Shown here: piece by piece, positions 10,657-37,018 of the stretch
Layout: each line of letters opens with the position of its first letter
How positions within the stretch are numbered: the stretch's first letter is position 1
IMG/VR virus record: IMGVR_UViG_3300035698_019959
Location: 443-64,442 of that record
Strand: one strand, 5' to 3'
Source of the DNA: a virus
Taxonomy: Duplodnaviria; Caudoviricetes
DNA length: 64,000 nucleotides
Translations under genes and position numbers: made by a program
The notes under the pieces: generated by a model
Seen by the model: only the letters and a program-made list of their open reading frames with translations
Told to the model about the DNA's origin: nothing
Databases searched by the model: none

Positions 10657-12477
10657 GTGTCTAAGAATTTTCAGTTTTACGTACCCGTAGATATCTATAA
10701 AGACAAAAAAAACAATTACAGAATAAAAGGATTAGCTTCCACTGGAGACAAAGATCTGCAGGGGGAAATAATCAAGCAGCAAGGATTAGACATCTCTGTC
10801 TTGAAGTCTGGGAAGGGTTATCTCAATTGGGAGCACAAGAACGATCCCAAGAATATCATAGGGTTGATTGATGATGCTGAGATAACAGAAAAAGGATTGA
10901 TGGTGGACGGTCAGTTGTTCAAGAAGCACGACCAAGCCAAAGCGGTGCATCAAATCTTAGATTCCCTGGATGATAATCGTAAACATAGAATTCAAATGTC
11001 TGTAGAAGGAACAGTAATCAGTAAGTCAGACGGTAAAGAAAAAGGTTCGGGTAAGGTTATAGACAAAGCAAGAATAACAGCTGTAGCCCTAACGATGAAT
11101 CCTGTTAATAAGAGTACATACGCGGAATTGGTGAAAAGCTTAACAGCTGTAGAAGGATCTGATTTAGGTCATGGGGATGAGTTTCCTTCCTCCTTCTCGT
11201 CCCCTGATCCTTCTATTGACGAAAAGGATATAGATGATACAAAAGATAAAGAAGAAATTATCGGAGATAAAGAAGAGGGTGTCACAAAGAATTTCACAGA
11301 TAAAGTCAAAGAGGGAGTTGAGGAGAAAGTTGAGAATCAGAAAGTCACTGTGGCGGTAGATTATATCTGTAAGAAGGCCGAGGAGAAGGGTCTAGATCCT
11401 ATGGTAGTGTTAGACGGATTTAGTGATAAGCTGATAGAGGATGCTGAAGGTCAAGAGAAGTTTGATAAGTTTATTAAATCATTAGAAAGTAATCCATTTG
11501 CGCTGGATATCATTAAGGTTATGGTACAGGAAGGATATATCAGAAAGGGCGGGAAGGGTTCAGGCAAGAGAGGTCACAAGACTTATAATTCTAACGCATC
11601 AAAAAGACATGGTGGGGCAAATTTAAAAGATCCTGAAAGAGTCAAGGAAGAAACTGCTTACGCGAAGAAAGAAGCATCTCGTAAGGAAGCTCAAAAGCGT
11701 CATATGGATAAGCTTATTGAAAGAAAGAAAAAAGAAGGTAAGCCAACCAAGGGTGTTGAAGATGCGAAGAAAGAAGGTAAGAAGCCTGAACCAGCGGAAA
11801 TGCAAGACGACGATGCAGAGGCAAGAGCTCGGGAGCATTATAATGCAGCATGGGACGATCTAAGCAGTAGTGAGCAAGATTTTATTCAAGCTGAATATGA
11901 TAAAGAACAAGTTGATGGTGGTAAGAAAAAAAAAGAAGGTAAGCCAACAAAGGGTGTTGAAGATGCGAAGAAAGAGCATGTAAAGGATAAGGGTAAAAGG
12001 AAGAAGTCACTCCCAAATATCAAAAGTCTTTTAAAGGCCATCCCAAAAGAAAAGCACAAACAGTTTCTTATATTATTAAAAGCGAATATTGAAAAGGGTG
12101 GGAAGGGTTCAGGAAAGAAAGGACATAGAACAGCCAAAAAGCCTAGACAAGATAAAAGCCAAAAGAAAAATCCTAAAGAGTATAAGGGAGATATAATAAA
12201 AGAAATTGGAACTTTATCTAGGAAAATGGGTGCAGACGCTGAATTTGATAGTGCTGAATCAAGTGATAATGAATTGCGATTAGATTTTAATTCAAGTAGG
12301 CATGGTGGATTCTTTACGCCTAGAGCTGGTGAGCAAGATGATGATTCTCCTAAATTTACAGGAATTGATAAAATAGGTAGTGCTGTACAAAAAATAGTTG
12401 GTAAAGATTTTAATGTTAAGTTAAGAGATTATGAAAAAGGAATGTTCACGATTCGTGTTGTGAGAAAAGGTAAGTAA
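10657..12477 (+). CDS. prohead protease (Herelleviridae-like) with long C-terminal extension
   Basis: IKGLAST.DKDLQGE, YLNWEH, MSVEG, VALTMNPVN..TYAELVKS; GTG start with AAGGAG RBS. Confidence 0.85.
   Translation: MSKNFQFYVPVDIYKDKKNNYRIKGLASTGDKDLQGEIIKQQGLDISVLKSGKGYLNWEHKNDPKNIIGLIDDAEITEKGLMVDGQLFKKHDQAKAVHQILDSLDDNRKHRIQMSVEGTVISKSDGKEKGSGKVIDKARITAVALTMNPVNKSTYAELVKSLTAVEGSDLGHGDEFPSSFSSPDPSIDEKDIDDTKDKEEIIGDKEEGVTKNFTDKVKEGVEEKVENQKVTVAVDYICKKAEEKGLDPMVVLDGFSDKLIEDAEGQEKFDKFIKSLESNPFALDIIKVMVQEGYIRKGGKGSGKRGHKTYNSNASKRHGGANLKDPERVKEETAYAKKEASRKEAQKRHMDKLIERKKKEGKPTKGVEDAKKEGKKPEPAEMQDDDAEARAREHYNAAWDDLSSSEQDFIQAEYDKEQVDGGKKKKEGKPTKGVEDAKKEHVKDKGKRKKSLPNIKSLLKAIPKEKHKQFLILLKANIEKGGKGSGKKGHRTAKKPRQDKSQKKNPKEYKGDIIKEIGTLSRKMGADAEFDSAESSDNELRLDFNSSRHGGFFTPRAGEQDDDSPKFTGIDKIGSAVQKIVGKDFNVKLRDYEKGMFTIRVVRKGK
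11728..11975 (+). repeat. 47-bp direct repeat pair (11728-11774, 11929-11975) inside the protease gene
   Basis: Both copies encode KKEGKPTKGVEDAKKE; one mismatch. Confidence 0.9.
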
Positions 12478-14172
12478 ATGACTTTATACGAAGGATTAAC
12501 ACATTATCCTAAATCAACAGTATTCAATGATGGCCAGATCAGGCTTCTAAATGATTACAGTTCTGCTTTTGCTGATAATAATCTTAATATTGCCCAATTA
12601 TTCTCTAATATCATAGGAAACATCTCTGATTTAGACCTGACAGGTGTGACACAAACAACTGAGGCGATTGACCTATATGTAACGACTACGGGAAGTGACG
12701 GGGCGACAGGAGCTTCTGACGATCCCTATTTAACGATACAGCATGCTATAGATTCAACTCCTGATGTTTATAGTTATAATGTCACAATTCATGTTGGAGC
12801 GGGAACGTTCTCTGAGTCTATAGATGTCTCTAAGCTCGGTAGAAAAGATTACGATATAGATTTTGAAATAGTAGGAACTGAAACTGAATTATTAAGTGAA
12901 ACATATGTAACAATTAGAACATCAACGACTATAGTAGTAGCGGGAGCGGCTTGGACTACTAATGAATTTAGTAATAAGCAATTTGTTGTAACTGCTGGTG
13001 CAGGATATTACGGAGCAGAATATGATTACCTTCAAGTAGCAGTCGTTAGATCGAATACAGCAAACACACTTACGTTTGTTGCATCTCCACCTGGGTTAGG
13101 TGCGACTACGCAATTTAAGATTGTAGAACCAGGAACTATGTTGAATTCTGTTGGGAATTCTTATGGTGTTGAAGTTAATAGTAGTTCTCAAACATTAACT
13201 AAATTTAAGAATATAAAGTTTCAGAATGCTGCCATTGTAGATATCTTAATTAACACTGGTCAGGTGATTTGTGTAAGTTGTGAGTTTGATGCAGGGTTGG
13301 GAAGATATGGTGGTGTAGTTGCTTATGATTTTTTTAGGATATACGGATGTTATATTCACGGAGATTATGCGGGTTCGGGCGTGTTTGCAAGTTTTGGTAG
13401 TGGAGCCATTTATTATTCTATAATTAGCGGAGTCACTAGTTATGGTGCTCGTGGTGTTCGTGCATCAGCTTGTGAGTTGACACTAAAACATAGTTTGATT
13501 GATGATTGTTATGAAGGAGCAGTTGCTGATGTAAATGGTTCTGTTGATTTTACAGGAAGTCGGGTGCGTAATTGTAGTGAGAGAGCTTTTCGTGCTTGGG
13601 GTGGTGGATATATAGAAGCATGGGATTGTAATTGTGATTCAAATTATGTGGTTGCAGCTGCTTTTGCTGGTGGTGAGATTTGGATTGATACTGATAAAGT
13701 AACCGATACAACTTATGCTATATTTGATCCAGGTGGAAGTGGTAGAGTTCAGGATTCAGTTGACGAATCTGTTCATTATAATACATGGGCGGAAGCTGTG
13801 GAAACTGTTAGCACTACAGACGATACAGTTACGCAAATAGCAACGATATCTCTTGTTGAAAGTGAATATCTAAGAGTAGAAGCGGATGTCGGTTGTAGGG
13901 GGAATGGTTCTCGTGATCATGCTTTTTATAAAATAGCGGGATTGTTTTATAGGAATGATGGTGATAATGTAATGCAAGTCGGTTCTGATACTCCGATTAT
14001 GACTCCTATTGAATCGAACATAGCTTTAGACGCAGGTTTTTCCTTAGATGTTCCCAATCAAAGTATAGATATATGGGTGCAGGGGATAGATATGCAAATA
14101 TTTAATTGGCAGGTTTCTTATAAGTATAAGAAAATGGAAGATCCACCTGCTGCTGCAGGAGTTCCTGAATGA
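12478..14172 (+). CDS. putative head fibre/spike with parallel beta-helix (pectin-lyase-like) region
   Basis: YVTTTGSD.ATG..DDPYLTIQHAID and IHVGAGTFSE motifs; G/N/C-rich beta repeats; position in head operon. Confidence 0.65.
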   Translation: MTLYEGLTHYPKSTVFNDGQIRLLNDYSSAFADNNLNIAQLFSNIIGNISDLDLTGVTQTTEAIDLYVTTTGSDGATGASDDPYLTIQHAIDSTPDVYSYNVTIHVGAGTFSESIDVSKLGRKDYDIDFEIVGTETELLSETYVTIRTSTTIVVAGAAWTTNEFSNKQFVVTAGAGYYGAEYDYLQVAVVRSNTANTLTFVASPPGLGATTQFKIVEPGTMLNSVGNSYGVEVNSSSQTLTKFKNIKFQNAAIVDILINTGQVICVSCEFDAGLGRYGGVVAYDFFRIYGCYIHGDYAGSGVFASFGSGAIYYSIISGVTSYGARGVRASACELTLKHSLIDDCYEGAVADVNGSVDFTGSRVRNCSERAFRAWGGGYIEAWDCNCDSNYVVAAAFAGGEIWIDTDKVTDTTYAIFDPGGSGRVQDSVDESVHYNTWAEAVETVSTTDDTVTQIATISLVESEYLRVEADVGCRGNGSRDHAFYKIAGLFYRNDGDNVMQVGSDTPIMTPIESNIALDAGFSLDVPNQSIDIWVQGIDMQIFNWQVSYKYKKMEDPPAAAGVPE

Positions 14173-15118
14173 TAGACGAAAAAGAAATATACAGAATGGA
14201 CAAAAAACTTCATTCAAAACTTCTAGAGATCCCCTCAGCTCAAAAGAAGATAAAGATTCCTAGAATTGAGATTGATTTTAAAAAGCCTTTCAAGTTCTTG
14301 AAAAAGAAGAAGACGGTGAGGTTATGGAAAAAGCCTTAACAGTTGGGCATAGCGGAACAGAAGCTCCAGCGAATAGAACAGGTGCAGGTGCTACTAATAA
14401 AGAAGATATAGACCAAGTGACTAGAATTGTAACATGGGGTCAAGGAGAGTTGTTAGATATGGGTTTCAGCACAAAGAAAAAGAAGAAAATAGCGAAGTCT
14501 ATATTGAAACTAAAAGAACAATTTCCTGATGCTCCTGTAAAAGAGCTTGTTAATGCGGTTATAGATAGAATTGAAAAAGGTAGGGGGAAAGATAAAGGTA
14601 AGAGGAAGAAAAGAAAGTTGACTTCCCAAGAGCTTCAAGCTGAACAAAGGAAATATAATAAGAGATATGGTTCGGACGCTGAACGTAGGGATGGTGAGCA
14701 TGAGGAGAAGGAAGAAAAAAAGAAATTAGATTCGTATGAGAAAAAGTCTCAGCCGCTAGATAAAGACCTGTTCAAATCTATATTAAAGAAGGTTAAGGAG
14801 AATTATCCCGGAACTTCATTTGAGGGGATAATCTATATTACCAAAGAGGTTTATAAGAAAAAGTTTCAAAAAGCCAAATCGTTCACAGCAGACGATGCTA
14901 AAAAGGTAGGAGAGAAGCTAGGAATAGACTGGGATAAGTGTAAGTTTGATGTGAAGCAGTTTCTTATGGGCTTGAAGGTAGAACTAGAGCATGGAACAAA
15001 AGATAAAGAAACGAATGTGACTGGTGATGACATTGTTAAGACAGGTAAGATTGCGTTGGCTCATTTAAAAGAATCACCTGATTACTATACGAAGTTAAAA
15101 GAGATGGAAGAAGAATAG
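14169..15118 (+). CDS. putative internal head polyprotein ending in a DUF5661-like domain; likely starts at 14169 with a -1 frameshift at 14280-14285 (ORF track gives 14324-15118)
   Basis: AGGAG RBS before ATG 14169; C-terminal GLKVELEHG...KIALAHLKESPDYYTKL; KALTVGH...TGAGA segment. Confidence 0.7.
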
Positions 15119-15610: not shown

Positions 15611-16048
15611 ATGGCTTATGTATATCAGGTTTTAAGTTCAGATCAAGTTAGATTACTCGATGAGTATAGTGGGGCAATGCATAAAGTAAAATTATCAGAG
15701 CTTTTAGATTCTGTTATGGATGTCGCAGCTTCAGGAGCATTCACCAATATAGTAGTTAGTAATAACGCTTCTATTGGAAATGATTTGACTGTTGTTGGTG
15801 CTACAGTTTTAGCAACCTTACAAGTTGGTGGTGGTTACGGAGATACAGGTGTTACTATTGATGCAGATGGTAATCTTTCTGCTGATGGTGTTGGCGATTT
15901 CGCTGCTAGTGGTTTACAAACTACAGTATACACTCCTGCGACTGCAGCAGCAACTGGCGAAAAGGGAATGATCACTTACGACACTTCATATATTTATGTA
16001 TGTGTCGATACGGATACTTGGATGCGAGGAGCAATAGCGACTTGGTAG
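15611..16048 (+). CDS. putative short head fibre/decoration protein
   Basis: C-terminal P.T....G.KG.I.YD..YIYVC...DTW.R....W motif common in phage fibre proteins; N-terminus resembles 12478 and 31914. Confidence 0.65.
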   Translation: MAYVYQVLSSDQVRLLDEYSGAMHKVKLSELLDSVMDVAASGAFTNIVVSNNASIGNDLTVVGATVLATLQVGGGYGDTGVTIDADGNLSADGVGDFAASGLQTTVYTPATAAATGEKGMITYDTSYIYVCVDTDTWMRGAIATW

Positions 16049-16072: not shown

Positions 16073-17173
16073 GTGCGTATTGGTTTAGTTAGCACTTTCA
16101 ATATAGAGTGTGGAATTGCCACGTATACTCAGCATCTTGTAGAGAATTATCCTAAGAATACAATAATCTTTGCGAACGATTTAGATGGTATGAATGATAC
16201 GGGTGATCATAAAGGTCACCCCATTATTCGTTGTTTTTCTCGTAAGGGCACTCACGAAAGATTATTAAAAGAAATTATAGATTCTAAGGTTGATGTAATT
16301 CATTTTCAACATGAATTTGGCTTATTCCAAAATCACAAATCTTTCTTGGAGCTTTTGAAGGCATTAAAGACTCATTATAATAAAAGGATTGTGATGACTT
16401 TCCACACTGTGTTCACAGACAATCAGTGGAATAGTAAAATATACGAATATTTTAAATGGTGTGATAGGTTTATATTTCATCACGAAGATGCTAAAAAACG
16501 ATTAGATTTATCTAGTTGTTATGTTATTCCCCATGGTTCTGTAGTTGTACGATCGAAGCCGAGATGGGAAGCTCGTGAGTATTTCGGAATCCCGGAAGAT
16601 CGTTTCGTTGCATTGGCGTTGGGGTTTATTACACCAACAAAAGGTGCGGCAGATAGCATTAATGCTGTCATGCGATTAAGAAAGATGTACCCGAATTTAT
16701 TATTAATAGTAGCAGGTACGGCTATTGTTTATGATAATAATTTCACTAATTTAGAATATGCTTTAACATTATTTAAGCAAGTAAGAATGATGAAGGCAGA
16801 AAAAACTATCAAGATCATGTTCAAGTTTATCCCAGAGAACGAGCTTGATTATTTTGCTGGGGTTACAGACATAGCAATAGAGAATTACCATCAGACGCAA
16901 TATTCAACATCAGGAATGAGCCACCTAGTTATGAGTTATGGATTGCCCTCTATTTCTTCTAATTCAAATATCCTAGCAGATTTAACTCCGGAAAGAAGTT
17001 TAAAGTATGATATCGGGAATATTGAACAGATGACTGGTCAGCTAGAAAAGCTTATCACTGATGACGTTTTAAGAAAGCAACTCTCTAGTAATTGTTTAGA
17101 TTATTCAAAAAAAACCTCCTGGCCAAATACTACAAAAAGTCACTGGGACTTATATAACGGCATAGCATTATAG
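16073..17173 (+). CDS. glycosyltransferase, GT4 (GT-B)
   Basis: CGIATYT, HFQHEFGLF, TFHTV, IPHG, LGFITPTKG, STSG motifs. Confidence 0.9.
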   Translation: MRIGLVSTFNIECGIATYTQHLVENYPKNTIIFANDLDGMNDTGDHKGHPIIRCFSRKGTHERLLKEIIDSKVDVIHFQHEFGLFQNHKSFLELLKALKTHYNKRIVMTFHTVFTDNQWNSKIYEYFKWCDRFIFHHEDAKKRLDLSSCYVIPHGSVVVRSKPRWEAREYFGIPEDRFVALALGFITPTKGAADSINAVMRLRKMYPNLLLIVAGTAIVYDNNFTNLEYALTLFKQVRMMKAEKTIKIMFKFIPENELDYFAGVTDIAIENYHQTQYSTSGMSHLVMSYGLPSISSNSNILADLTPERSLKYDIGNIEQMTGQLEKLITDDVLRKQLSSNCLDYSKKTSWPNTTKSHWDLYNGIAL

Positions 17174-17182
17174 GAAAATAAA

Positions 17183-18229
17183 ATGATAAAGACTGATAGG
17201 CTGAGAATAGCAATTACAGGATTTTATGGAGCGGGTAATAGTGGCGATGAGGCTATGCTTCATAACTTAGTATTCAAGATTAAGCAAAGAGTCCCTGATG
17301 CAGTTATACTAGTGGCAACCGATAGAATAGGGGACTGGCAACATGATGATGTTTATTATATGTCAGCGTTAGATAGAGCGAAACTTAGAGAGACAGATAT
17401 CTTTATAGTAGGTGGTGGAGATTTAGGATTTGGGTTCGGTTGGAATTTATTACCTTGGGCAAAAAGGTTTAAGAACAAATGTATTATGATGGGTAGTGGT
17501 ATTAACAGAACATGGAGAGATCCAAATTTTAAAACAGCGATAACTTCTATGTTGGGCTTGTTTGATAAAATATATGTAAGAGACGAAGACTCAGCTTTGT
17601 TTTTAAATGATTTGGGTGTTTATAACAAATACGCTACGGATATGTCTTTTGATCTATGTCAAGTACCATATGTCTTTAGAAAGAGTGAGAAGCATATTAC
17701 CTTATGTATAAGGGAAACAGAAAGTAAGTACGAATCTCAGATGTTGGATTGTGCTATTAGAGTTATAAGAAAAGTTACTACTGATGGATTTACAACAACT
17801 ATTCTACCGCTTTGTGAAGAGGATGCTATAAGATGCGATAAGATCTCTAGTTTCTTCAATGACAAGGTTCAACTGATTCATACACCAGATCCAGAGCAGC
17901 ATAAATATATTATAGCAAATTCAAATTATTTAGTTTCTTTAGGACGTTTGCATTCTTTGATATATGCTACTGATACTTGTACTCCTATGATAGGAATGAG
18001 TTACCCTGTGGTTGAGGAATATTCTAAAATAAATGCATGGATGAAACATATTGATTTAGAGAGGTTTCATTTAGACTTTTCTCCTTCTATAAAGCAATTT
18101 ACAGAGAAGTGGACGCACATGCGAGCGCATGTGGTTGCGGTTAAAGATATTTTACAAAAGCAAAGAGACAGACATATCAAACTTAATAACGATCAGTTCG
18201 ATGATGTCATCGGGTTAGTGGGTGAATGA
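17183..18229 (+). CDS. polysaccharide pyruvyl transferase family protein
   Basis: GFYGAGNSGDEAM, GGGDL, YVRDEDS, GRLHSLIYA. Confidence 0.9.
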   Translation: MIKTDRLRIAITGFYGAGNSGDEAMLHNLVFKIKQRVPDAVILVATDRIGDWQHDDVYYMSALDRAKLRETDIFIVGGGDLGFGFGWNLLPWAKRFKNKCIMMGSGINRTWRDPNFKTAITSMLGLFDKIYVRDEDSALFLNDLGVYNKYATDMSFDLCQVPYVFRKSEKHITLCIRETESKYESQMLDCAIRVIRKVTTDGFTTTILPLCEEDAIRCDKISSFFNDKVQLIHTPDPEQHKYIIANSNYLVSLGRLHSLIYATDTCTPMIGMSYPVVEEYSKINAWMKHIDLERFHLDFSPSIKQFTEKWTHMRAHVVAVKDILQKQRDRHIKLNNDQFDDVIGLVGE

Positions 18230-19230
18230 TGCCAAAGATGACAGTGGGTATAAATACAGCACAAATAGATTATCCTTATTCTGCTTACCCAGACGTGCAT
18301 CTGTTTGAAATGACTATGAAGAGTCTGCGTGAGCAAACTTTTAAAGATTTTGAAGTTGTTGTTGCTGATGTAAATTACGAACAAAGAAAAAACTATTTCA
18401 TAGATCATCCTGAAGACTTTCCAGTTAATCACGTTCCGATAAAGCCAAATATTTGGATTCCATTTAATCATATGGCAATAGCTACTACGAAGAATACAAT
18501 TCTCTTGCATGCAAAGGGTGACATAATTACATCAGTAGGTTCTTCTGTACGTTTGGACAAATACTTTTTAGAAGCTGTTTTAAGCGGTGTGACCGAAGAT
18601 TGTTGTGTGGTTAATCGGTTTTCTATTAATTGTGGGGAAAAGATTATTTTTCATGATGGTAGAGATCCTGCTGATTCTCATTCTTCTGTTCATGGAAATG
18701 TGTCTATGACTAAAGAGAATTGGATGTTAATAAATGGATATGACGAAATGCTTGATGGATGTAAGGGGTTAGAAGATTGTGATATTGGAATAAGGTTGGT
18801 TAGAGCGGGTAAGAAGATAAAGTTGATTGGCCCAAAGATTGTGTATGAAGATCATGTCACTTATTATCCTTTATTGCGTGATGGCCCTGGGTTTCAGAAG
18901 TGTCCGCACCTATTATTAGAGATATCTAAAAAAAGAAGTCAAATTCGTGCTAACGAAACTCCATTGACTGATCAAGAGTATAGTTATTTAAAGATGTGCA
19001 AATTAGGGGATCAAAGAGATAGTTGTATTTTATTTCCTGATCAACCATGCATTCATTGCACTGAAGACAACAAATGTTATTTTGGGGAAGAGCCTGAGTT
19101 GATGGGATTGTATAAGCATCCTTCTTTGATTTTTGATTTAAAAGAAATGCGTAAAAACATTGATTCGGCTATTTTGGCATTAATATATATGTGTAGTCTA
19201 GAAGAATTAAAAGAATTTATAGGGGGATAA
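18226..19230 (+). CDS. glycosyltransferase GT-A (GT2 with GT7C-like C-terminal motif), paralog 1
   Basis: SLREQTFKDFEVVVAD, KNTILLHAKGD, INGYDEMLDG.KGLED.D. Confidence 0.85.
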   Translation: MMPKMTVGINTAQIDYPYSAYPDVHLFEMTMKSLREQTFKDFEVVVADVNYEQRKNYFIDHPEDFPVNHVPIKPNIWIPFNHMAIATTKNTILLHAKGDIITSVGSSVRLDKYFLEAVLSGVTEDCCVVNRFSINCGEKIIFHDGRDPADSHSSVHGNVSMTKENWMLINGYDEMLDGCKGLEDCDIGIRLVRAGKKIKLIGPKIVYEDHVTYYPLLRDGPGFQKCPHLLLEISKKRSQIRANETPLTDQEYSYLKMCKLGDQRDSCILFPDQPCIHCTEDNKCYFGEEPELMGLYKHPSLIFDLKEMRKNIDSAILALIYMCSLEELKEFIGG

Positions 19231-19232
19231 AA

Positions 19233-19748
19233 ATGGATGAATATCAAGAAAGGTACAAAGGGCACCAACAAAGAAAAAGGGAAATGCTGATGAAGATAAT
19301 GGAAGAGAGACATTCTGATAGAATTTTTAGTGATAAAGAAGTTGAGTTGGAGAAGGTGAATGCATTGACCAAGTGTGTTAATTTGTGCCCCACTTCTTGT
19401 GGTAGAAGGGCAATAAGTTTAAAAGTTGTTTCTGATAGAGATAAAAAGAATTTGTTAGGTGGAATTTTAGTGGGTGGAACTGGCTGGATAAATAGAGCGA
19501 AACATATTTTTTTAATTTTTGCAAACGGAGAGGCTTATAAAGCAGGAGATGAAATTAATTTTATGCCATACTTAGACGCAGGGGTGGTAGCTCAACAATT
19601 ATATTTAATGGCTACGACTTTAGATTTAAAATGCTGTTATGTTAATCCGAATATAAGGGAAATGAATAAAGAGCATTTTAAAAATATTTTTGGAGATGGG
19701 CTCTTTTGTGGGGCTTTTGCTATAGGATATGGAGAAAATAATGCCTGA
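19233..19748 (+). CDS. nitroreductase-family protein
   Basis: RHSDRIFS, CPTSCGR, LDAGVVAQQLYLMAT.L.L.CC. Confidence 0.85.
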   Translation: MDEYQERYKGHQQRKREMLMKIMEERHSDRIFSDKEVELEKVNALTKCVNLCPTSCGRRAISLKVVSDRDKKNLLGGILVGGTGWINRAKHIFLIFANGEAYKAGDEINFMPYLDAGVVAQQLYLMATTLDLKCCYVNPNIREMNKEHFKNIFGDGLFCGAFAIGYGENNA

Positions 19749-20757
19749 AATATCTATTTGTGTGGGAACGGCTCATAGCGATCACGCTATGTTGGGTAAT
19801 CCTAAGATGCATATTTTTAAGTACCTCACAAAGTCTTTAAGGGAACAAACCTTCAAAGATTTTGAATTGGTTCTGACGGACACTCTTTATGAGCAGAGAA
19901 AAGATTATTTTAAGAAGTTCCCTGAAGACTTTGTTGTTAAGCATGTTCCTGTGAAGCCGAATATTTGGATGCCTCAGGGATATTGCGCAATAGCTACTAC
20001 TAAGAATACAAGTTTGTTACACGCCGAGGGCAAGATAGTTGTTTATACTGGTGATTGTTCTAGCTTACCTCCTAACTTTTTAAAAACTATTGTAGAAAAA
20101 ATAAGATCGAATCGCTGTATAGCAAACACTTACGAGATATATTCGGGAAGGAAGCAAGTTTTTAAGGATAGGAGAGCTCCTGGAATAGTCCAAGGTACGT
20201 ACGGTAATGTTTCTTTATATATGAAGGACGCATTAGAGCTGAATGGATACAATGAGATGTTTGATGGCTCTAAGGGTTTGGAAGATTGTGACTTTGGTAG
20301 GAGAATGTATTCTAAGGGAATGATAATTGAATTAATAGATCTCCCTGTTCGGTATCAACAACACAAGGGTGACTTCCCAACTTTAGAAGCTCAACCACTA
20401 AAATGCCCAAGACTGATGGAAATGATGAGCTGTGATAGATCTAGGATAAAAATATATAAAGCAAATTCTGTACCGTATACAGAAAAGGAAATTGATCGCT
20501 TGTTAGAATGTTCTGAAATATCAAAAGGCCATTTCTGTAAATATGTACGAGATATTAATGGTGACTCAATTGAATGTAGAAGTGGGTTGAATCAAGACGG
20601 TAAGGCAAAATATAGTGATGTTGTTAAAATAAGATTTATGTACAATCATCCTTCTTTGATCTTCGATTTAAAAGAACAAAAGAAGAGTATAAATAAAGCT
20701 TTGTTCGATTTAGACAAATTATGTCAAGATGTGGGGGCGAGATATGCCAAAAGTTAG
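19741..20757 (+). CDS. glycosyltransferase GT-A, paralog 2
   Basis: SLREQTFKDFELVLTD, LNGYNEMFDG.KGLED.D; GGAG RBS before ATG 19741. Confidence 0.85.
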   Translation: MPEISICVGTAHSDHAMLGNPKMHIFKYLTKSLREQTFKDFELVLTDTLYEQRKDYFKKFPEDFVVKHVPVKPNIWMPQGYCAIATTKNTSLLHAEGKIVVYTGDCSSLPPNFLKTIVEKIRSNRCIANTYEIYSGRKQVFKDRRAPGIVQGTYGNVSLYMKDALELNGYNEMFDGSKGLEDCDFGRRMYSKGMIIELIDLPVRYQQHKGDFPTLEAQPLKCPRLMEMMSCDRSRIKIYKANSVPYTEKEIDRLLECSEISKGHFCKYVRDINGDSIECRSGLNQDGKAKYSDVVKIRFMYNHPSLIFDLKEQKKSINKALFDLDKLCQDVGARYAKS

Positions 20758-21775
20758 TGTAGTATATACAACAATTAGAAGAGACTTTCCTATGTTAAGT
20801 TTGCCGGATATTCATCAGTTTACTATGTTTTTAGATTCTGTTGAGAAGCAAACTTTTAAAGATGATATAGAAGTCATTATAGTAGACGCCTTAAAGGATC
20901 GCAAAATAAGCAATCCAATTACTCCTATGTTTGATGGGGTTACTAGAGGTGATTTTGATTTTTCTAAGTACTCTTTCCCGATAAAGCATATCAGACCTTT
21001 GCCAAGTTATTGGTTAGACGAAGGATTTTCGTCTTATTGTCATTGTGTTAACACTGGCATTATTGCTGCTGATGGTGAGTTGATTGTATTATTTGATGAT
21101 TGTTCAGAAATAATAGGCACGGAAGCTTTAGAATTACATTGGGAGTGGTATAAGAAAGGTGACGGTAAACAGTTCGCTCGTTCTATTTTTGAATACTGGA
21201 AAGGCGGTTCTCCTGTTCTACATCATCCTGATCATAAGACCCATGCGGGAAGACCCATAAGACATTCGGCATATGATTATCTTGCTAGAACAAATAAATT
21301 ATATTTAATACACGAGAAGATGTTTTGTGCCTTTGGGTATTACTCGTTTAGTTTAGATGTGATGTTAGAGTTGAACGGATATAATGAAATGTTTGATGGA
21401 GCGAAGGGTGCAGAAGATTTCGATATGGGCTGTCGCTTAATAGATTTTGGTGTTCGGTCGATAGCGGATATGCGGTTAAGAGTGATAGAACATTTCCACG
21501 AGCCTATGGTTTTCCATGGAGTAAACCATAATCGTGGTCGTAGGAATAATGTTGCTATTCACGAAGCACTCTTAAAGCGCGGTCCAACATTTAAAAGAGC
21601 AAATGAGAAGCCGCTGACCGAAGAAGAATATAATTTTATGTTAGAAAGAGATAGAGTGTATGTTCCTAATTTTGTAGAAGACGAGTATATTAAGAGAATT
21701 AAAACTCACCCACCAATTTTTGATTTAAAAGACCTGAGGAGGAAATATCGTGAAGGATTCTATGATGAGAAATAA
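20744..21775 (+). CDS. glycosyltransferase GT-A, paralog 3
   Basis: QTFKDDIEVIIVD, NTGIIAADGELIVLFDDC, LNGYNEMFDG.KG.ED.D. Confidence 0.85.
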   Translation: MPKVSVVYTTIRRDFPMLSLPDIHQFTMFLDSVEKQTFKDDIEVIIVDALKDRKISNPITPMFDGVTRGDFDFSKYSFPIKHIRPLPSYWLDEGFSSYCHCVNTGIIAADGELIVLFDDCSEIIGTEALELHWEWYKKGDGKQFARSIFEYWKGGSPVLHHPDHKTHAGRPIRHSAYDYLARTNKLYLIHEKMFCAFGYYSFSLDVMLELNGYNEMFDGAKGAEDFDMGCRLIDFGVRSIADMRLRVIEHFHEPMVFHGVNHNRGRRNNVAIHEALLKRGPTFKRANEKPLTEEEYNFMLERDRVYVPNFVEDEYIKRIKTHPPIFDLKDLRRKYREGFYDEK

Positions 21776-22331
21776 TGGTGTAAAAGAAAGAATTTATATT
21801 ACTGATAGTGAGTTAGAGATTATTGAGAACAGGTTATCGGTAGAAGCTCATGTCCAGAGATATGGCTTTGTGCGTCAGTATGTTCACGATCATGTTTTAG
21901 ATTGTGCTTGTGGGTGTGGGTACGGAACTTATATGTTATCTAAGAACCCTGATGTTAAATCTATTATAGGAGTTGATAGATCTAAAGAGGCAATTGATTT
22001 TGCTATGGATAATTATTGTGATAAAAAAACTTTTTTTACTCATTGTGAAAATATAGAAGATTTTGAGGTTGAGTGTATAGATCAGTTGGTTTCTATAGAG
22101 ACGATAGAGCATTTAAAAGATCCCATGACTTTAATAGAGATGGCTATAAGGAATGAGGTTCCGGAATTAATTATTTCTTTCCCGACTAAAAAGTCCACTC
22201 ATTATAATAAGTTTCACTATCATGATTTTACATTCAACGATATCAAAGAGATGTTGGTTGGATATTATAAGGTAAAAGATTCATTTGAATATAAGCGAGA
22301 AGTAGGGTTTGTTTTCGCCAAAAAAATATAA
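21762..22331 (+). CDS. class I SAM-dependent methyltransferase
   Basis: H.QRY.F, VLDCACG.GYG, GVD, SIETIEHL. Confidence 0.9.
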   Translation: MMRNNGVKERIYITDSELEIIENRLSVEAHVQRYGFVRQYVHDHVLDCACGCGYGTYMLSKNPDVKSIIGVDRSKEAIDFAMDNYCDKKTFFTHCENIEDFEVECIDQLVSIETIEHLKDPMTLIEMAIRNEVPELIISFPTKKSTHYNKFHYHDFTFNDIKEMLVGYYKVKDSFEYKREVGFVFAKKI

Positions 22332-22345
22332 GGAGAATAAAAAAA

Positions 22346-23083
22346 ATGAAAGCTTCTGATTTTAATGCAAAGTATTATGATAAGAACTATTTTGTAACCC
22401 CAGAGGGCAAAAAATTTCATAACGCTGATGGTAAGGAATTGGGTTGGAGTTATAATAACCCTGAAGGAGAATTCTTAGGAGCTGGCCCGATAGCTCAGGC
22501 TTGGGCAACAATTTTCAAACCTAAGAATATGTTAGATGTGGGTTGTGGCCGTGGAACATTCGTAGCGTATGCTCGCAAGGCGGGTATTGAAGCGCACGGA
22601 TTTGATTTTTCAGAATTCGCTACAAGCGAAGAAGGAAAGTATGCTGGTTGTGAAAAGGGATGGTTAAAGTGTCACGATGCTTCAAAACCTTGGCCGTATC
22701 CAGATAATCATTTTGATTTAGTAACGTGTTTAGATTTGTTCGAACATATTTACGAAGAAGACCTACCTCAAGTGATTAATGAAATGTTTAGGGTAGCAAA
22801 GAAGTGGGTATTTATTCAAATTTGTACGGTTAATGGCCAAGAAGGTTATACACTAGGTAAGAAAGAAAGTGTTCCGATAGAGCTTGAGGGAATGGCCGTT
22901 GCAGGACATGTTTGCATTAAGCCAGAGTATTGGTGGAATTATAGGTTTTATAAAAATGAGTGGCTTCCTAGGAAGGTTATGACCGAGAGATTTATTTCTC
23001 TGGTGGATAACAATATTATTTCCAATTGGATAAGGAATTCAATTTTAGTTTTTGAAAAAGATATCGATGGTTCGGGGGAGTAA
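22346..23083 (+). CDS. class I SAM-dependent methyltransferase
   Basis: MLDVGCGRG, GFDFS, FDLVTCLDLFEHI, GHV.IKPE.WW. Confidence 0.9.
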   Translation: MKASDFNAKYYDKNYFVTPEGKKFHNADGKELGWSYNNPEGEFLGAGPIAQAWATIFKPKNMLDVGCGRGTFVAYARKAGIEAHGFDFSEFATSEEGKYAGCEKGWLKCHDASKPWPYPDNHFDLVTCLDLFEHIYEEDLPQVINEMFRVAKKWVFIQICTVNGQEGYTLGKKESVPIELEGMAVAGHVCIKPEYWWNYRFYKNEWLPRKVMTERFISLVDNNIISNWIRNSILVFEKDIDGSGE

Positions 23084-23111
23084 TTAATTTTAACAACATG
23101 AGAGAGTGGTA

Positions 23112-24053
23112 ATGAAAATTCAATTTTTTAAACGTACTGATACAACATCTTTTGATTATTTGGGAACTTGTATTTCAGAGATCTGTAGGGCTCATGGTCA
23201 TAAGGTCGTTGTAAAGAGTATAAATAAATTTGTAGAGGGAGAAGGTATTGAGAGAGCTGAAGTGGGGATGTCTTATGGTTTAATTTCTGATATAAGGCAT
23301 CTTGCTGCTTATCCTATAAAAATTGCTGGCTTGGTCTGTGAGAAGGATTTAACCCCTAAAGAAATAAAAATAATTAAAAATATAGATCCTACAGAGATTT
23401 GGGTACCTAGTGAGTTTGTAATGAAGAAATTCCAAGAGGCTGGTTTTATAAAAAACTTGGCATTGGTTCCTCATGGTTTGGGCGAAGTCACAAAGGTTAA
23501 GAATAAAAAACGTACGGATAAGGTTCTAATGATTTTTAATTCTTATAAGAAGGCAGATTTTAGTGTAGAAAGAAAAGGAATTTTTGAAGTACTAGAAGCA
23601 TGGGGTAAATATAAAATACCACAAAAATTGATCCTAAGAACCAAGTATAGAAATTATTATGGAAAATATGATCTATCCAATGTTTCTTTTATAGAAGATA
23701 GAGTCGAAGATATCGGTGGATTGTTAAATGATTGTGATGCTGTTCTTTGCCCTAGTTATTCAGAAGGGTTTGGGATTGTTGGGTTAGAGGCTTTGGCTCA
23801 TGGCGTTCCCTTGATATCGACCAAGACGGGGAATGATTATCTTCAAAAGGATGTTTTTTATACTCATATAGATTTGCCAGTGACAGTAGAAAAGATAAAG
23901 ATAGCTATTGATGAGACGTATTTAGATTTAGATATAAATAAAAAAATAGCAATGGGGCAGGCTGATCGAGTATATAAAAAGTATAAATGGCAAAGTCTTT
24001 ATAAGATAATTGAAAAAAGAATTAGTGTTTTAAAATCTAAGAGATACTCCTAA
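23112..24053 (+). CDS. glycosyltransferase, GT4 (GT-B)
   Basis: VPSEF, VPHG, RKG, PSYSEGFGIVGLEALAHGVP (Ex7E). Confidence 0.9.
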   Translation: MKIQFFKRTDTTSFDYLGTCISEICRAHGHKVVVKSINKFVEGEGIERAEVGMSYGLISDIRHLAAYPIKIAGLVCEKDLTPKEIKIIKNIDPTEIWVPSEFVMKKFQEAGFIKNLALVPHGLGEVTKVKNKKRTDKVLMIFNSYKKADFSVERKGIFEVLEAWGKYKIPQKLILRTKYRNYYGKYDLSNVSFIEDRVEDIGGLLNDCDAVLCPSYSEGFGIVGLEALAHGVPLISTKTGNDYLQKDVFYTHIDLPVTVEKIKIAIDETYLDLDINKKIAMGQADRVYKKYKWQSLYKIIEKRISVLKSKRYS

Positions 24054-26046: not shown

Positions 26047-26790
26047 ATGAGTAAAAATAAAAATTTATATTCTAAGGAAGATCTCACGAAAGCTATTGAT
26101 GAGACTTTGGAAGATTTAGATTTAGAAGAAACAAAAGATGTAGAGATAGAAAATCTTGAAAATGAAAAAGAAGATGTTGTCGTTGAAGAAAAGGAAGAAG
26201 TTGTAGAAAAAGCTAAGAAGAAGAAAGAAAGTGATAAGAACGATGACGATGATGACGACGAAGATGGTGAAGACGGTAAGAAAAAAGTCCCTGAACAGTT
26301 TGAGAAGAAAAAGGACAAAAAAGAGAAAAAGGACAAAAAAGTGAAAAAGTCTATAGAGGTTGATGAGTCTGAATATAATGATCTTAAGAAAGCTTTTGTT
26401 GAATTAGAAGAGCTTAAAAAGACAGAAGAAGATTCGACTGATCTTAAGAAAGCTTTAACTGAAATTTCTGATCTTAAAAAGTCAGTTGCAGAGTTAAAGG
26501 CAGTCCCCGATGTCAAGAAGTCGGTAGATGGTATCGATATAATTGAAAAGGGTAATGCTGAAGATGGCAAGGTAAAGACTGATAAAGATCCTAAAAGCTT
26601 ACTGTCGAAACTTTCAAAAACTAAAGTAGCAGATATTATGTTTGAAGAACTCAAGAAGGGTGAAACCGATATAACATCTGAAGATATTTCGGGCATGGCA
26701 GCTACTGGATATATTGATGAGAATAGACCAGAAGTTTTAAACCAAACTCTTGAGGCAATCGGCCAAAGAGTAAAAGACGGTAGATTATAA
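26047..26790 (+). CDS. head scaffolding protein
   Basis: Highly charged coiled-coil protein immediately upstream of MCP; many x-x-K-[SAG] sites. Confidence 0.75.
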   Translation: MSKNKNLYSKEDLTKAIDETLEDLDLEETKDVEIENLENEKEDVVVEEKEEVVEKAKKKKESDKNDDDDDDEDGEDGKKKVPEQFEKKKDKKEKKDKKVKKSIEVDESEYNDLKKAFVELEELKKTEEDSTDLKKALTEISDLKKSVAELKAVPDVKKSVDGIDIIEKGNAEDGKVKTDKDPKSLLSKLSKTKVADIMFEELKKGETDITSEDISGMAATGYIDENRPEVLNQTLEAIGQRVKDGRL

Positions 26791-26823: not shown

Positions 26824-28302
26824 ATGTTTAATGAGGCAAATTTTACAGAGGGCTTTGGGTCTTCTACAGTACAGGAATTAGAGGCTCTTAGAAAAGCTTT
26901 GACTGTCGATCATACTTATACTGCTGCTCCCGGAACTTTTACGGGCGCGGGCGCTTTACAGGTTGAATCTTTAGATGCTTCTCTTAAGAGTGTTACTTTT
27001 ACGAACAAGAATCTAACTATATGGCCACGTATCCCTAAGGATAAAGCATATAGTACGGTTGAACAGTATGTAAGACAAACCAGTTATGGTGAAAGCCAGA
27101 ATGGTGGATTTTTTGATTCTGAAGCAGGAGTTGCTCCTCATACAGAGGATCCTACTTGGAATAGACAGTATCAGTTAGTTCGTTATGTTGGAACGACTCG
27201 TTCAGTTGCTCATGTTGCAACTTTAGTAAAGCAAATTGGCGCTCCGATGATAGCAAAGGCTGTTGAGGCAGGAACCAAATGGATTCTGCAGCAAATGGAA
27301 AGACAACTTTGGTTGGCTAACAGTTATTTTGTAGGTGTTGATGGTATCTTTGATGGCGCTACGGCTGATATTCCGGCCACGTCTTTAAAGTTTAATGGTT
27401 TAGATCAGCAGATTCGTGCTGGTGATTCTGATGCGAAAGCAAAGTATACGGGTTTTGAGGGATATGATGATGACATTTCTGTTGTTGTTGATATGCTCGG
27501 AAGTATTCCCGATGAGGATGCTCTTGAAGAGGCTTCAAGAATTGTGGCTTCGAATTTTGGTATACCTACTGCGCTGTTTATGGATTACAAGGCACATAGT
27601 GATATCAGCAGAACCTTCTATCCGAAGGAATGGTATCCTCGTCCTGGTATGATGCAGGGTGGCCAAGGTGGTTTTGTATTATCAAAGTTTATCAGTTCTG
27701 CTGGTATTTATGATCTTATAGGAACTCGTTTCCTATCACCAAGACGTTCTGTTCTTGCTGCGGCAGAATCAGACGCTCCTAATACTCCTGTTGTTACGGG
27801 TACGGCAGCTGTTGCTGATGTTGCATCTAATTTAGATGCAGGAACTTATTATTTCAGAGCTTCTGCGATTGGCCAGTTTGGTGAGTCGCTTGCTTGTGCT
27901 GAAACAGTTGGTCAGGTCATTGCGGCCAATCAGCATGCTACGGTCACAATAGCTCCAGGAATTGTTGGTGCACAGTATTATGCTTTATTTAGGACCGAAA
28001 CCTCTGGTGCAAGTTGGTTGTTCATAGGTTTTGTGGCAGATTCTACTGGTAACGGTGGTGGTGCAACTTTTGTTGATGCTGGTAATTATTTACCAGGTTC
28101 TTCAAAGGCATATCTGCTTCAGTTAGAGTCGGCAGAAATTGTTTGGAGACAGTTAGCTCCATTGATGAAGATGGATCTTGCCGTTATTTCGCCTGCGTAC
28201 AGATGGATGCAATTACTTTACGGTACACCGATTGTATTCGCTCCGAGACATCATGTTATACTTGATAATATCGGTCAGGGCGTTGCAATTACTGCTCCGT
28301 AA
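26824..28302 (+). CDS. major capsid protein (Herelleviridae-like)
   Basis: KAL...GAGALQVESLD, KAYSTV.QY, F.GL, FG.PT..FM, L.PLMK.DLA, LLYGT....APR resemble Twort/K/SPO1-type MCPs as recalled; Ig/FN3-like insert near the C-terminus. Confidence 0.9.
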   Translation: MFNEANFTEGFGSSTVQELEALRKALTVDHTYTAAPGTFTGAGALQVESLDASLKSVTFTNKNLTIWPRIPKDKAYSTVEQYVRQTSYGESQNGGFFDSEAGVAPHTEDPTWNRQYQLVRYVGTTRSVAHVATLVKQIGAPMIAKAVEAGTKWILQQMERQLWLANSYFVGVDGIFDGATADIPATSLKFNGLDQQIRAGDSDAKAKYTGFEGYDDDISVVVDMLGSIPDEDALEEASRIVASNFGIPTALFMDYKAHSDISRTFYPKEWYPRPGMMQGGQGGFVLSKFISSAGIYDLIGTRFLSPRRSVLAAAESDAPNTPVVTGTAAVADVASNLDAGTYYFRASAIGQFGESLACAETVGQVIAANQHATVTIAPGIVGAQYYALFRTETSGASWLFIGFVADSTGNGGGATFVDAGNYLPGSSKAYLLQLESAEIVWRQLAPLMKMDLAVISPAYRWMQLLYGTPIVFAPRHHVILDNIGQGVAITAP

Positions 28303-33071: not shown

Positions 33072-34013
33072 ATGGAAAATGTTGGATTAAACTTTGAAAA
33101 TGGTGATGCGATATTTAATTCGTTTCATGCATTGTTTGCTTTAGATACTGGTGATTTACAGATTAGTGCAAATTTATATGATTATGATGCTCGTAAAAAT
33201 AGCGATGATGGGATGACTGCTTCTGGTAAATATAAAAAGCCAACAGGTAAACATCTTTCAGTAAGTGTTAGTGATAACAATCAGTTCGCTGATTATATGG
33301 ATGATGTTGCTGTTAGTACTAGACAAGAAGGATTCTCTTTTCAAAAATTAAAAGATATGAACCAAGAGGATTGGACTGATTTAGATTATAAGATTGCCAT
33401 ACAAATTTTAGAGTGTTATGTAGAGTTTATTTTAAGTGGCGATAAATCTTATTATGAGACAAAGAAAATATCTAAAGCAGGATGGACAAAAGAATTCGGA
33501 TTGGTAAAAGGTTGCCCAGGAGACAAAAAGCGTTCAGATGGCAAAGGTAAAGGACATGGTACTGGAGAAGGTAAGGGGCCAATCGGCAGGCAAGGTGATA
33601 TAGATAGAAAAGGTGAAGGCCCTAAAAAGGACAAGAAGAAATCTAAGAAAAAATCAGGAAAGAAGTCAGGAGACAATATGAAACTAAAGGATTTAGTTAA
33701 AAGTATGATTAAAGATGGAATGTCAAAAGAAGATATTAAGAAGGTAATTCTTGATAGATTTGATACTCCTGTAATTAAAGCTGAAGATATTATCAAAAGC
33801 GATGGTCAAGTATTTAAAATGACTGATAAGACAGATAAGCCTATTGATGATTTTCTTAAAGCTGCTCAGCCCACTGCTGACATTCTCAATTGGGAAGGGT
33901 ATGAAAGTAAAGAATATGTTAGCGGCGGTAGGGATTTAGAAGGGGTTGAGAAGTCACAGGGTGAAGCAGTGGCCTCTAAATTTGTAGAAAGAAACTTGGT
34001 AGGCGATAAATAG
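33072..34013 (+). CDS. putative internal head protein (K-[SAG] site-rich)
   Basis: ISKA, LVKG, LVKS, VIKA, IIKS, FLKA, VEKS; G/K-rich linker. Confidence 0.55.
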   Translation: MENVGLNFENGDAIFNSFHALFALDTGDLQISANLYDYDARKNSDDGMTASGKYKKPTGKHLSVSVSDNNQFADYMDDVAVSTRQEGFSFQKLKDMNQEDWTDLDYKIAIQILECYVEFILSGDKSYYETKKISKAGWTKEFGLVKGCPGDKKRSDGKGKGHGTGEGKGPIGRQGDIDRKGEGPKKDKKKSKKKSGKKSGDNMKLKDLVKSMIKDGMSKEDIKKVILDRFDTPVIKAEDIIKSDGQVFKMTDKTDKPIDDFLKAAQPTADILNWEGYESKEYVSGGRDLEGVEKSQGEAVASKFVERNLVGDK

Positions 34014-36664: not shown

Positions 36665-37018
36665 ATGGATTTAAATTTGGTACCCCCAATGCAAGATGAT
36701 GATGCAGAGATAAGGGCTCGGGAGAAATATAATATGGGATGGAATGATTTAGGTAGTAAAGAACAGGATATAATTCAAGTCGAATATGATGAAGAGCATT
36801 CAGAACAGATTGTTCAAAAAGAATCAAAGGGTCAAATAATGGATGATCAAACTAAAAGATATAGAGAAGCCCAATTTGAAAAATTAGCGATTGAATATTC
36901 TGAATATAAACCAAAAATCAAGATCGTAAAGCCTAATGGCGAAACGAATTGGCTTGATATCGAAGAAGACGAGTTCAAAGCTATTAAACATATTTTAACA
37001 GACAAAGTAAAAATCTAA
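36665..37018 (+). CDS. early-type hypothetical protein sharing a 37-aa module with the prohead protease extension
   Basis: AAGGAG RBS; MQDDDAE.RARE.YN..W.DL.S.EQD.IQ.EYD.E. Confidence 0.75.
   Translation: MDLNLVPPMQDDDAEIRAREKYNMGWNDLGSKEQDIIQVEYDEEHSEQIVQKESKGQIMDDQTKRYREAQFEKLAIEYSEYKPKIKIVKPNGETNWLDIEEDEFKAIKHILTDKVKI

Follow-up and report, generated by a model that had tools for sequence, protein, structure and literature searches.

The window analysed here is a 64,000-nucleotide (nt) stretch of viral DNA (Duplodnaviria; Caudoviricetes; positions 443 to 64,442 of the IMG/VR record IMGVR_UViG_3300035698_019959), and this work concerns its prohead protease gene at 10657-12477 and the open reading frame (ORF) at 14324-15118. 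The window capsid protein is ~30% identical to those of SPO1-like Bacillus phages and of some Bacteroides phages, and sheath, baseplate and other tail genes occupy 41851-64000. From the capsid protein family matches and this tail gene set, the window phage is a distant, uncultured relative of the Herelleviridae (SPO1 / Staphylococcus phage K group). The window covers nearly all of a 64.4-kb contig. A nucleotide search with 10657-15118 against the phage collection gave no match. The protease ORF encodes 606 amino acids (aa), comprising a catalytic domain at aa 1-160 and an extension of 445 residues. Whether the region is a Herelleviridae-type prohead protease gene that has grown into a carrier for internal head proteins is, in our judgement, evenly balanced. 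Its basic modules are probably loaded into the capsid, and the joints of Lys followed by Ser, Ala or Gly (K-[SAG]) look like the protease's own predicted cutting sites. The features of the region are listed below, with arrows marking predicted cuts; AF2 denotes the AlphaFold model.

10657..11136, + strand: prohead protease catalytic domain, aa 1-160, ending at L-V-K160↓S-L
11137..11547, + strand: acidic linker aa 161-229, then helices aa 230-291, with site F-I-K274↓S (AF2 and alignment)
11539..11583, + strand: joint 1, a helix end, I-R-K297↓G and the Gly/Lys leader GGKGSGKRGHKT (sequence, AF2)
11548..12036, + strand: payload 1, aa 298-460, net charge +13, isoelectric point 9.6 (AF2, charge)
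11725-11774 and 11926-11975, + strand: 50-nt direct repeats (D1) flanking the hairpin module, 96% identical
11800-11907, + strand: hairpin module, aa 382-417, between the 50-nt repeats
12013..12132, + strand: helical hairpin aa 453-480 (K460↓A, K475↓A) and joint 2, I-E-K480↓G with the leader GGKGSGKKGHRT (AF2)
12169..12468, + strand: payload 2, an alpha/beta domain, aa ~505-604 (phmmer, AF2)
14324..14437, + strand: copy of the capsid maturation site and N-arm, ORF 14324 aa 1-38 (BLASTP)
14471..14872, + strand: ORF 14324 aa 50-183, with poly-Lys, a helical module to I-E-K85↓G, a basic leader/piece, and a second module K151↓S-K183↓A
14897..15115, + strand: DUF5661 domain, ORF 14324 aa 192-264 (Pfam PF18905)

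The catalytic domain matched PHROG 1028, 'head maturation protease' (E 4.2e-34, aa 2-164). A tblastn search against cultured phages returned 697 records, all confined to protease aa 1-~170, among them the SPO1 and CP-51 proteases, with 37-38% identity covering aa 1-164 only. No Pfam model matched the catalytic domain, and no solved structure matched it by sequence. H60 and S115, which may belong to the catalytic site, were invariant in 23 of 23 protease sequences. K160 was likewise invariant in all 23 aligned proteases, with S161 and L162 at least 90% conserved, and a Lys-Ser/Ala site closing the catalytic domain was present in every related ORF that reaches this point. A sequence-only reading of this DNA had counted about 440 extra residues behind the catalytic domain; the family match ends at aa 164, and the measured extension of 445 residues agrees with that count. 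No record in the phage collection matched the extension.

The AF2 model of the whole 606-aa protease, with confidence given as the predicted local distance difference test (pLDDT), showed the following layout.

aa 1-163: folded catalytic domain (pLDDT 83-95 over aa 1-150)
aa 168-229: disordered acidic linker (pLDDT <50)
aa 212-291: helices
aa 297-325: disordered, beginning exactly at joint 1
aa 327-360: helix, then disorder at 362-383
aa 383-420: helical hairpin between two disordered Lys-rich repeats, then disorder at 422-452
aa 453-480: second hairpin (helices 453-461 and 464-480; pLDDT 68-86)
aa 482-504: disordered
aa 506-603: final domain

The sites of the extension are K160↓S, K274↓S, K297↓G, K460↓A, K475↓A and K480↓G. 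As the sequence-only reading had described, one basic leader, GGKGSGK(R/K)GH(K/R)T, follows both K297 and K480; in the DNA it forms a 40-nt direct repeat that is 83% identical. In the model, K297↓G and K480↓G each coincide exactly with the end of a helix and the beginning of the disordered Gly/Lys leader. The pieces that follow K↓G joints, in this protein and in the two ORFs described below, carry net charges of +8 to +13 (protease aa 298-460, +13; aa 481-604, +9), and the piece at aa 161-274 has a net charge of -16. The helices at aa 230-291 are conserved in the closest relatives, and F-I-K274↓S is kept in P0002, P0003, P0004 and L004 and missing from P0005.

Payload 1 consists of a long helix, two disordered repeats rich in Lys, and a helical hairpin of 36 aa. 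This hairpin (aa 382-417) has 72% protein identity to aa 9-44 of ORF 36665 (E 2e-15), and the two DNA copies are 82% identical over 164 columns. Its position between the 50-nt repeats looks like a recent module insertion or duplication. A Pfam search at E <= 1 with protease aa 162-606, ORF 33072, ORF 36665 and the extensions of five relatives returned chance-level rows only.

We tested the motif h-x-K-[SAG] (h, hydrophobic; x, any residue) with 2000 within-protein shuffles in a set of four proteins, namely the protease, ORF 14324, the scaffold-like ORF 26047 and ORF 33072 (1430 aa together). The set contained 32 sites vs 10.7 expected (z 7.0), and none of the 2000 shuffles reached 32. The stricter form h-x-K-[SA]-h occurred 13 times vs 1.4 expected in the same proteins. 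Five control motifs were not enriched in this set: the reversed motif, Arg at P1 (the residue before the cut), Glu at P1, a non-hydrophobic residue at P3, and Lys followed by a residue other than Ser, Ala or Gly. In the remaining 73 ORFs of the window (18,444 aa) the count was flat, with 64 copies vs 67.5 expected. The enrichment that the sequence-only reading had proposed to test is thus real beyond a Lys-rich composition, and the sites, leaders and domains that it listed were each found in place. Tested singly, ORF 14324 gave only p 0.04, and 5 of the 11 protease sites lie inside the folded catalytic domain.

Two further ORFs had an excess of sites. ORF 34863 (34863-35606; PHROG 16819), which the sequence-only reading had not named, contains 7 sites vs 1.7 expected, with five among its first 41 residues, and it had no homologue among the fetched loci. 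It may be another substrate of the protease, one whose N-terminal propeptide is cut several times, or simply a helix rich in Lys and Ala. ORF 8094 contains 3 sites vs 0.6 expected.

The other head proteins and modules that bear on this system are the following.

26047..26790, + strand: scaffold-like acidic protein, net charge -21, 9 sites, directly upstream of the capsid gene
26824..28302, + strand: major capsid protein (PHROG 752, E 1.8e-69; PDB 9vel, SPO1 Gp6.1, E 9e-64)
26893-26898, + strand: predicted capsid maturation site L-R-K24↓A25 (alignment to SPO1 L-N-K↓A)
33072..34013, + strand: ORF 33072, with acidic aa 1-135, K146↓G, a Gly/Lys/Arg leader and a small tail cut up by sites
36689..36796, + strand: N-terminal module of ORF 36665, paralogous to the payload 1 hairpin (protein and DNA identity)

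The scaffold ORF has 9 sites vs 1.6 expected, where about eight had been read. This separate, acidic, site-rich ORF aligned with the scaffold-position ORFs of eight related loci, and its K15, K135, K168 and K191 were invariant across 9 of 9 loci (alignment A7). ORF 33072 has 7 sites, the number given in the sequence-only reading, vs 2.45 expected, and its piece at aa 147-210 has a net charge of +13. Its K146, K210, K236, K242 and K294 were invariant in 3 of 3 homologues, one of which begins just before K146. K146↓G with its leader repeats the arrangement of site and leader in the protease, and aa 146-184 share 74% identity with aa 225-263 of the protease extension in the related locus L015. 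The ESM Atlas gave nothing usable for ORF 33072 aa 1-146.

Cleavage of the capsid protein after a Lys near its N-terminus, the premise of the sequence-only reading, agrees with the records of cultured Herelleviridae. In the A511 record, residue 24, behind A-L-K↓S, is annotated as the start of the mature capsid protein. For phage 812 the PDB has the capsid protein both at 463 aa and as a chain of 439 aa, an offset of 24 residues, and the gene reads V-V-K24↓S, consistent with this offset. The SPO1 capsid L-N-K↓A aligns to L-R-K24↓A of the window capsid protein, which is also the N-terminal site that had been proposed. From these records h-x-K-[SAG] is the predicted cutting rule of the Herelleviridae. 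No description of a Lys-Ser rule or of a capsid-site copy was found in the literature searched, including the accessible part of PMC3601020, which is no proof of their being unpublished.

Site-rich assembly proteins were also found in cultured members. The SPO1 protease has 8 sites vs 1.6 expected and its scaffold 11 vs 1.3; in Staphylococcus phage PSU5 the protease has 6 vs 1.1 and the scaffold 7 vs 1.3. The portals and capsid proteins of SPO1 and PSU5 were flat for the motif. The scaffold-position ORFs of nine loci (the window and eight relatives) contain 8-14 sites each. Since the proteases and scaffolds of SPO1 and the Staphylococcus phage are equally site-rich, a site-rich scaffold and protease tail are ordinary in this family; by analogy with other phages they would reflect self-destruction of the assembly core, not cargo. 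Site richness by itself says nothing about cargo. The proposal that cargo polyproteins co-assemble into the prohead is partly supported, by the enrichment, the variable extensions and one autonomous domain, but not by the site richness of the scaffold and protease tail.

ORF 14324-15118 has 5 motif sites. The sequence-only reading had treated it together with ORF 14169; the sites and the DUF5661 domain of ORF 14324 are as described, but 14169 is an ORF of its own, 56 codons long and in another frame. ORF 14324 begins at its own ATG, with an in-frame TAA at 14279-14281. A frameshift joining the two ORFs was considered and dropped, because the orthologue P0009 likewise starts four residues before its first site. 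ORF 14169-14338 overlaps the start of ORF 14324 and contains the A-rich run AAAAAGAAGAAG.

Our analysis showed that ORF 14324 opens with a copy of the capsid N-terminus. Its aa 1-38 have 47% identity to capsid aa 22-59 (BLASTP, E 9e-7), which places M-E-K3↓A on L-R-K24↓A. When the first 75 aa of each capsid protein were compared with the other + strand ORFs of the same locus (12 loci; L027 was left out as identical to L028), ORF 14324 was the best match in the window, with a score of 82 and the next at 46. The best match was a protease tail or an ORF 14324-type gene in 11 of the 12 loci; in L028 the protease came second (39 vs 41). In five further cultured phages of five lineages the protease was the best match each time, narrowly in Eyuki (60 vs 54).

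In all seven cultured phages considered (SPO1, PSU5, 812, A511, phiEF17H, 3-521 and Eyuki), the protease tail was the best local match to the phage's own capsid N-terminus. The capsid-like stretch directly follows the catalytic domain's Lys-Ser site in the cultured members. Apart from SPO1, they are phages of Bacillus (Eyuki), Staphylococcus (PSU5, 812), Lactobacillus (3-521), Enterococcus (phiEF17H) and Listeria (A511).

When copies and capsid proteins of 11 loci (without L028) were scored against each other, the top score of a copy was with the capsid protein from its own clade in 6 of 6 clades (window 82 vs <=59; SPO1 110 vs <=78; PSU5 116 vs <=61), a test over few clades that ignores kinship between the loci. 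The best scores within each clade argue against independent divergence from an old duplication, and suggest that the copy and the capsid N-terminus change in concert, through gene conversion or through selection that keeps them alike. A predicted complex of the capsid protein, the scaffold and ORF 14324 aa 1-95 scored 0.01 vs a mark of 0.32.

The short proteases of relatives carry the capsid-site copy in their tail, followed by poly-Lys and a small helical module. ORF 14324 opens with the same order of copy, poly-Lys and module, and continues with the basic leader, a second module and DUF5661; its piece at aa 86-151 has a net charge of +8. Among 1206 ORFs, a regular expression for the short helical module matched 14 times, and 12 of these matches lie in protease tails or in genes of the ORF 14324 type, a spread traced with this expression alone. 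Orthologues of ORF 14324 with reordered parts lie between protease and scaffold in L010, L012 and L005 (P0009). The DUF5661 match is strong (PF18905; E 7.5e-23, 81.1 bits vs a gathering cut-off of 27). The 221 homologues of this domain are mostly free-standing proteins of ~145 aa, some on contigs over 200 kb; the domain is common in cellular genomes and is also found fused to rubrerythrin, radical SAM and other enzymes. The name DUF5661 was not found in the literature searched.

The sequence-only reading had proposed an unrelated domain behind the leader, and payload 2 fits this description in that it folds alone and occurs as a free protein. A phmmer search of the full library with aa 162-606 gave 17 matches at E <= 1e-3 including the query, and 15 of the 16 others covered only aa ~512-602. 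Elsewhere the domain is free-standing at 96-131 aa, or lies at the N-terminus, at the C-terminus or in the interior of larger proteins. Its hallmark motifs are EEDDD and DHEKG, which read EQDDD and DYEKG in the window. With an alignment of homologues AF2 modelled it at pLDDT 92.2 and a predicted template modelling score of 0.84. On these matches and this model, payload 2 is a real autonomous domain. One of the 17 matches, P0145 (187 aa), holds little beyond two copies of joint and leader.

Payload 2 had no Pfam or PHROG family, no Foldseek match in the PDB at E <= 1e-3, and no tblastn match in cultured phages, where P0145 had none either. The wide VIA-align search gave a best Z of 7.6, to ferredoxin-like domains of type II secretion, within the noise range. 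Structurally, it came closest to uncharacterised proteins from a Rhizobium phage and from a Bacillus phage. An FtsK-alpha-like fold was rejected, as the template modelling score in the ESM Atlas (~0.5) was below the bar.

For the comparison with relatives we used seven homologues from the protein collection and 29 metagenome loci; a search of the viral contigs collection with a single protease found no related loci. The 23 complete related proteases fall into 17 short forms (237-348 aa) and 6 long forms (466-731 aa), two of the long ones being identical; one further long protease is cut by its contig end. The long proteases diverge from one another beyond their first ~300 residues. The joint motif K-[GA]-G-x-GSG-[KR] was searched in 1206 six-frame ORFs of the window and the 29 loci, and it occurred in protease ORFs and in one adjacent ORF type only: twice each in the window protease and in that of L004, three times each in those of L010 and L011, once in that of L012, and, outside the proteases, in the ORF that directly follows the protease gene of L010 and L011. 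The window, P0002 and L004 have the hairpin and leader in common and then continue with different sequence. The expected variation of the extensions among relatives was thus found, with the joints kept and the sequence behind them different. Literature searches for a Gly-rich leader motif of other phage proteins returned unrelated papers only.

L005 is the closest long locus. Its slot after the protease holds a 1047-aa multi-module protein (L005 4982-8125); the same slot of the window holds a Lys-poor beta-helix ORF with no sites. Modules move between protease tails and separate genes: the ORF 33072 leader occurs in the L015 protease, the capsid-copy tail in ORF 14324, and payload 2 as a free-standing protein. 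The 1047-aa protein of L005 contains a P-loop and three leaders of the form H-K-Y-x-K-R...G-x-Y-R-Y-W-Y, each after a Lys-Ala site. P0142 opens with a leader of this L005 type and also carries the payload 2 domain.

If the region is a carrier for internal head proteins, cargo proteins would be built into the scaffold core during prohead assembly, anchored there by the capsid N-terminus copy, by the short helical modules or through their place in the protease chain. The activated protease would then cut after Lys at h-x-K↓[SAG]. The acidic pieces, from the scaffold and the protease linker, would exit the head as DNA enters, the basic pieces would remain with the DNA, and some pieces may enter the host.

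Several observations weigh against this proposal. The cuts, the presence of the pieces in the virion and their ejection are predictions, and the sequence-only reading had already seen the motif when it named the four tested proteins. The regular expression is imperfect and misses the true A511 site, which has Ala at P3. In several cultured relatives it showed no enrichment, with 2 vs 1.4 in the A511 scaffold-position ORF, 2 vs 1.1 in the Eyuki protease and, for Lactobacillus phage 3-521, 2 vs 1.0 in the protease and 3 vs 1.4 in the scaffold-position ORF. Only three residues precede the first site of ORF 14324, and cutting at this site would have almost no effect. None of the payloads shows a recognisable activity, Pfam found nothing in the extension, and payload 2 matches uncharacterised phage proteins only, its PDB matches being in the noise range. 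ORF 34863 and ORF 8094 are enriched without any other link to the head core. As a rule, protease tails and scaffolds rich in sites are broken down and lost, and the same could happen to the extension.

This last point leads to a different explanation, possible though on the doubtful side, in which the extension is assembly machinery only, a scaffold-like or targeting tail that is chopped up and expelled with nothing retained or delivered. Protease tails and scaffolds are site-rich in every relative, much of the extension is disordered, and no enzymatic or known effector domain was found in it. The accessible text on SPN3US states that its protease removes its own C-terminal propeptide and that propeptides are generally expected to exit the head (PMC10052503). 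However, a well folded payload 2 that is free-standing elsewhere is hard to explain as a spacer, and the phage has a separate scaffold gene. The pieces after the joints are strongly basic whereas the scaffold is acidic, and strong differences among the extensions of close relatives, with the joints kept, are the pattern of swappable cargo. We consider it unlikely that the basic pieces are cut and kept but act only in the capsid, as DNA-condensing or charge-neutralising peptides and not as injected effectors. Their net charges of +8 to +13, the Gly/Lys/Arg-rich leaders and the lack of a detected catalytic domain would suit such peptides, but both payload 2 and DUF5661 are folded domains, the piece that contains DUF5661 has a slightly acidic character (-3), and the wide occurrence of this domain in cells, fused to enzymes, gives no hint of DNA packing.

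It is very unlikely, in our view, that the motif excess is a by-product of Lys/Ala/Ser-rich amphipathic helices, with most sites of the extension uncut and the leader serving as a binding or linker motif. Such an origin could account for the excess in ORF 34863 and ORF 8094, for the five protease sites in the folded catalytic domain, which are unlikely to be cut, and for a leader conserved beyond the needs of a mere cut site. But the reversed motif, Arg or Glu at P1 and Lys with other residues were not enriched in the same proteins, and the rest of the genome was flat. The sites are also positionally conserved among relatives, and both K↓GG joints fall exactly at helix ends before disorder.

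We compared the proposed carrier with known systems. Among the Herelleviridae (SPO1 gp3.2/3.3/6.1; A511 gp84/gp85/Cps; 812 Gp94-96) the catalytic domain is homologous to that of the window. They share with it a capsid cutting site after Lys ~24 residues in, many sites in the scaffold and the protease tail, and, within the head module, a copy of the capsid site and N-arm. However, the cultured proteases have 254-268 aa and the window protease 606 aa, the window copy lies on a separate ORF, and the window protease tail has extra basic modules. Compared with the family, the modular extension, its variable content and the capsid-site copy are unusual.

The T4 prohead protease cuts after Glu. The T4 proteins IPI-III and Alt are non-essential, are built into the core, trimmed by gp21 and kept with the DNA, and IPI is injected, according to the accessible text of PMC9958956. 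The order proposed for the window, of targeting element, protease site and basic payload, resembles that of T4. T4 uses an N-terminal capsid-targeting sequence of ~10 residues, whereas the window proteins are without such a tag, their cut is predicted after Lys, and their payloads are C-terminal on the protease or stand behind the capsid N-terminus copy. Giant-phage head proteolysis is of the same type in phiKZ (gp175) as in SPN3US. The proposed mechanism also resembles that of SPN3US, in which gp245 removes its own C-terminal propeptide and the long propeptides of ejection proteins are cut at several motif copies; the motif described in the accessible text is A-x-E↓, the cargo propeptides are N-terminal and the cargo lies in separate genes, in contrast to the window (PMC10052503).

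Polyvalent proteins combine many unrelated modules per chain near virion genes and are predicted to be packed into the head and processed (Iyer et al. 2017, PMC5512222); processing there is by their own metallopeptidase domain and not by the prohead protease, as far as the accessible part of that paper goes. They have two to fifteen recognisable effector or enzyme domains, whereas the window extension has no Pfam family and one autonomous domain. The 1047-aa neighbour in L005 looks like this class. In lambda C/Nu3, P2 gpO and herpesvirus UL26, a prohead protease has a long self-released C-terminal part that is the scaffold. The window differs from these fusions in its separate scaffold gene and in a tail that is basic, modular and variable. 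Among internal head proteins processed by a protease, what would be distinctive here is the Lys-specific rule, the attachment of payloads to the protease chain, and a candidate tag for loading in the form of a capsid N-terminus copy.

The gene neighbourhood differs from that of cultured Herelleviridae, in which the block of portal, protease, scaffold and capsid genes is kept. No portal match was found upstream of the window protease, and the scaffold begins 13.5 kb downstream of the protease, with the beta-helix ORF and a glycosyltransferase island between them. This island of ~8 kb (16073-24053) separates the protease from the scaffold and capsid genes and contains two glycosyltransferase-like ORFs, one methyltransferase-like ORF and several ORFs without a match; cultured relatives have nothing at this position. 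All long ORFs (at least 150 aa) are on the + strand with the single exception of 26019-26696, antisense inside the scaffold ORF. GC skew is positive across the whole window (0.12 to 0.44 in 2-kb windows), a strong excess of G over C.

ORF 12478 was excluded as a part of the processing system, being a beta-helix protein with 0 sites and 2% Lys. The Lys-poor ORFs 12478-14172, 15611-16048 and 31914-33059 have a common short N-terminal motif, Q-(I/V/K)-R-L-L-(N/D)-x-Y, and may dock to the same place on the virion. ORF 12478 has weak pectinesterase and tail-protein matches, and ORF 15611 has weak tail-protein matches. Just upstream of the scaffold, two adjacent ORFs of ~300 aa (24130-25050 and 25081-25980) are apparently paralogues, with a common central stretch that includes a G-L-D-T-G-x-E-A-V-S-T motif and no family match. 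The 544-aa ORF 28403-30037, directly after the capsid gene, has homing/HNH-endonuclease matches and a Mom-like DNA-modification domain (Pfam Mom, E 4.4e-25). The overlapping ORFs 37739-38149 and 38131-38571 match DUF932 profile positions 2-82 and 84-180, which means that this gene is split or frameshifted.

Proteins carried in phage heads can act ahead of all phage gene expression. To our knowledge, how head proteins are chosen and loaded is little understood outside the phages T4, P1 and N4 and the giant phages. Our analysis gives a simple predicted cutting rule, Lys then Ser, Ala or Gly, for a large family to which therapeutic phages of Staphylococcus and Listeria belong. It also gives a candidate loading tag, the co-varying copy of the capsid N-terminus, and a conserved joint for payload exchange. 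We suggest only tentatively that the copy of the capsid site and N-arm is a general prohead loading and cutting tag of the whole SPO1/phage K/A511 family, placed on the protease in cultured members and freed here, and that with the K↓GG-x-GSG-K joints the protease locus is a plug-in site at which small proteins are exchanged, packaged, released by cutting and delivered along with the DNA. If true, this would explain how the protease enters the Herelleviridae prohead, and the tag would be usable to load chosen or foreign proteins into the heads of these phages.

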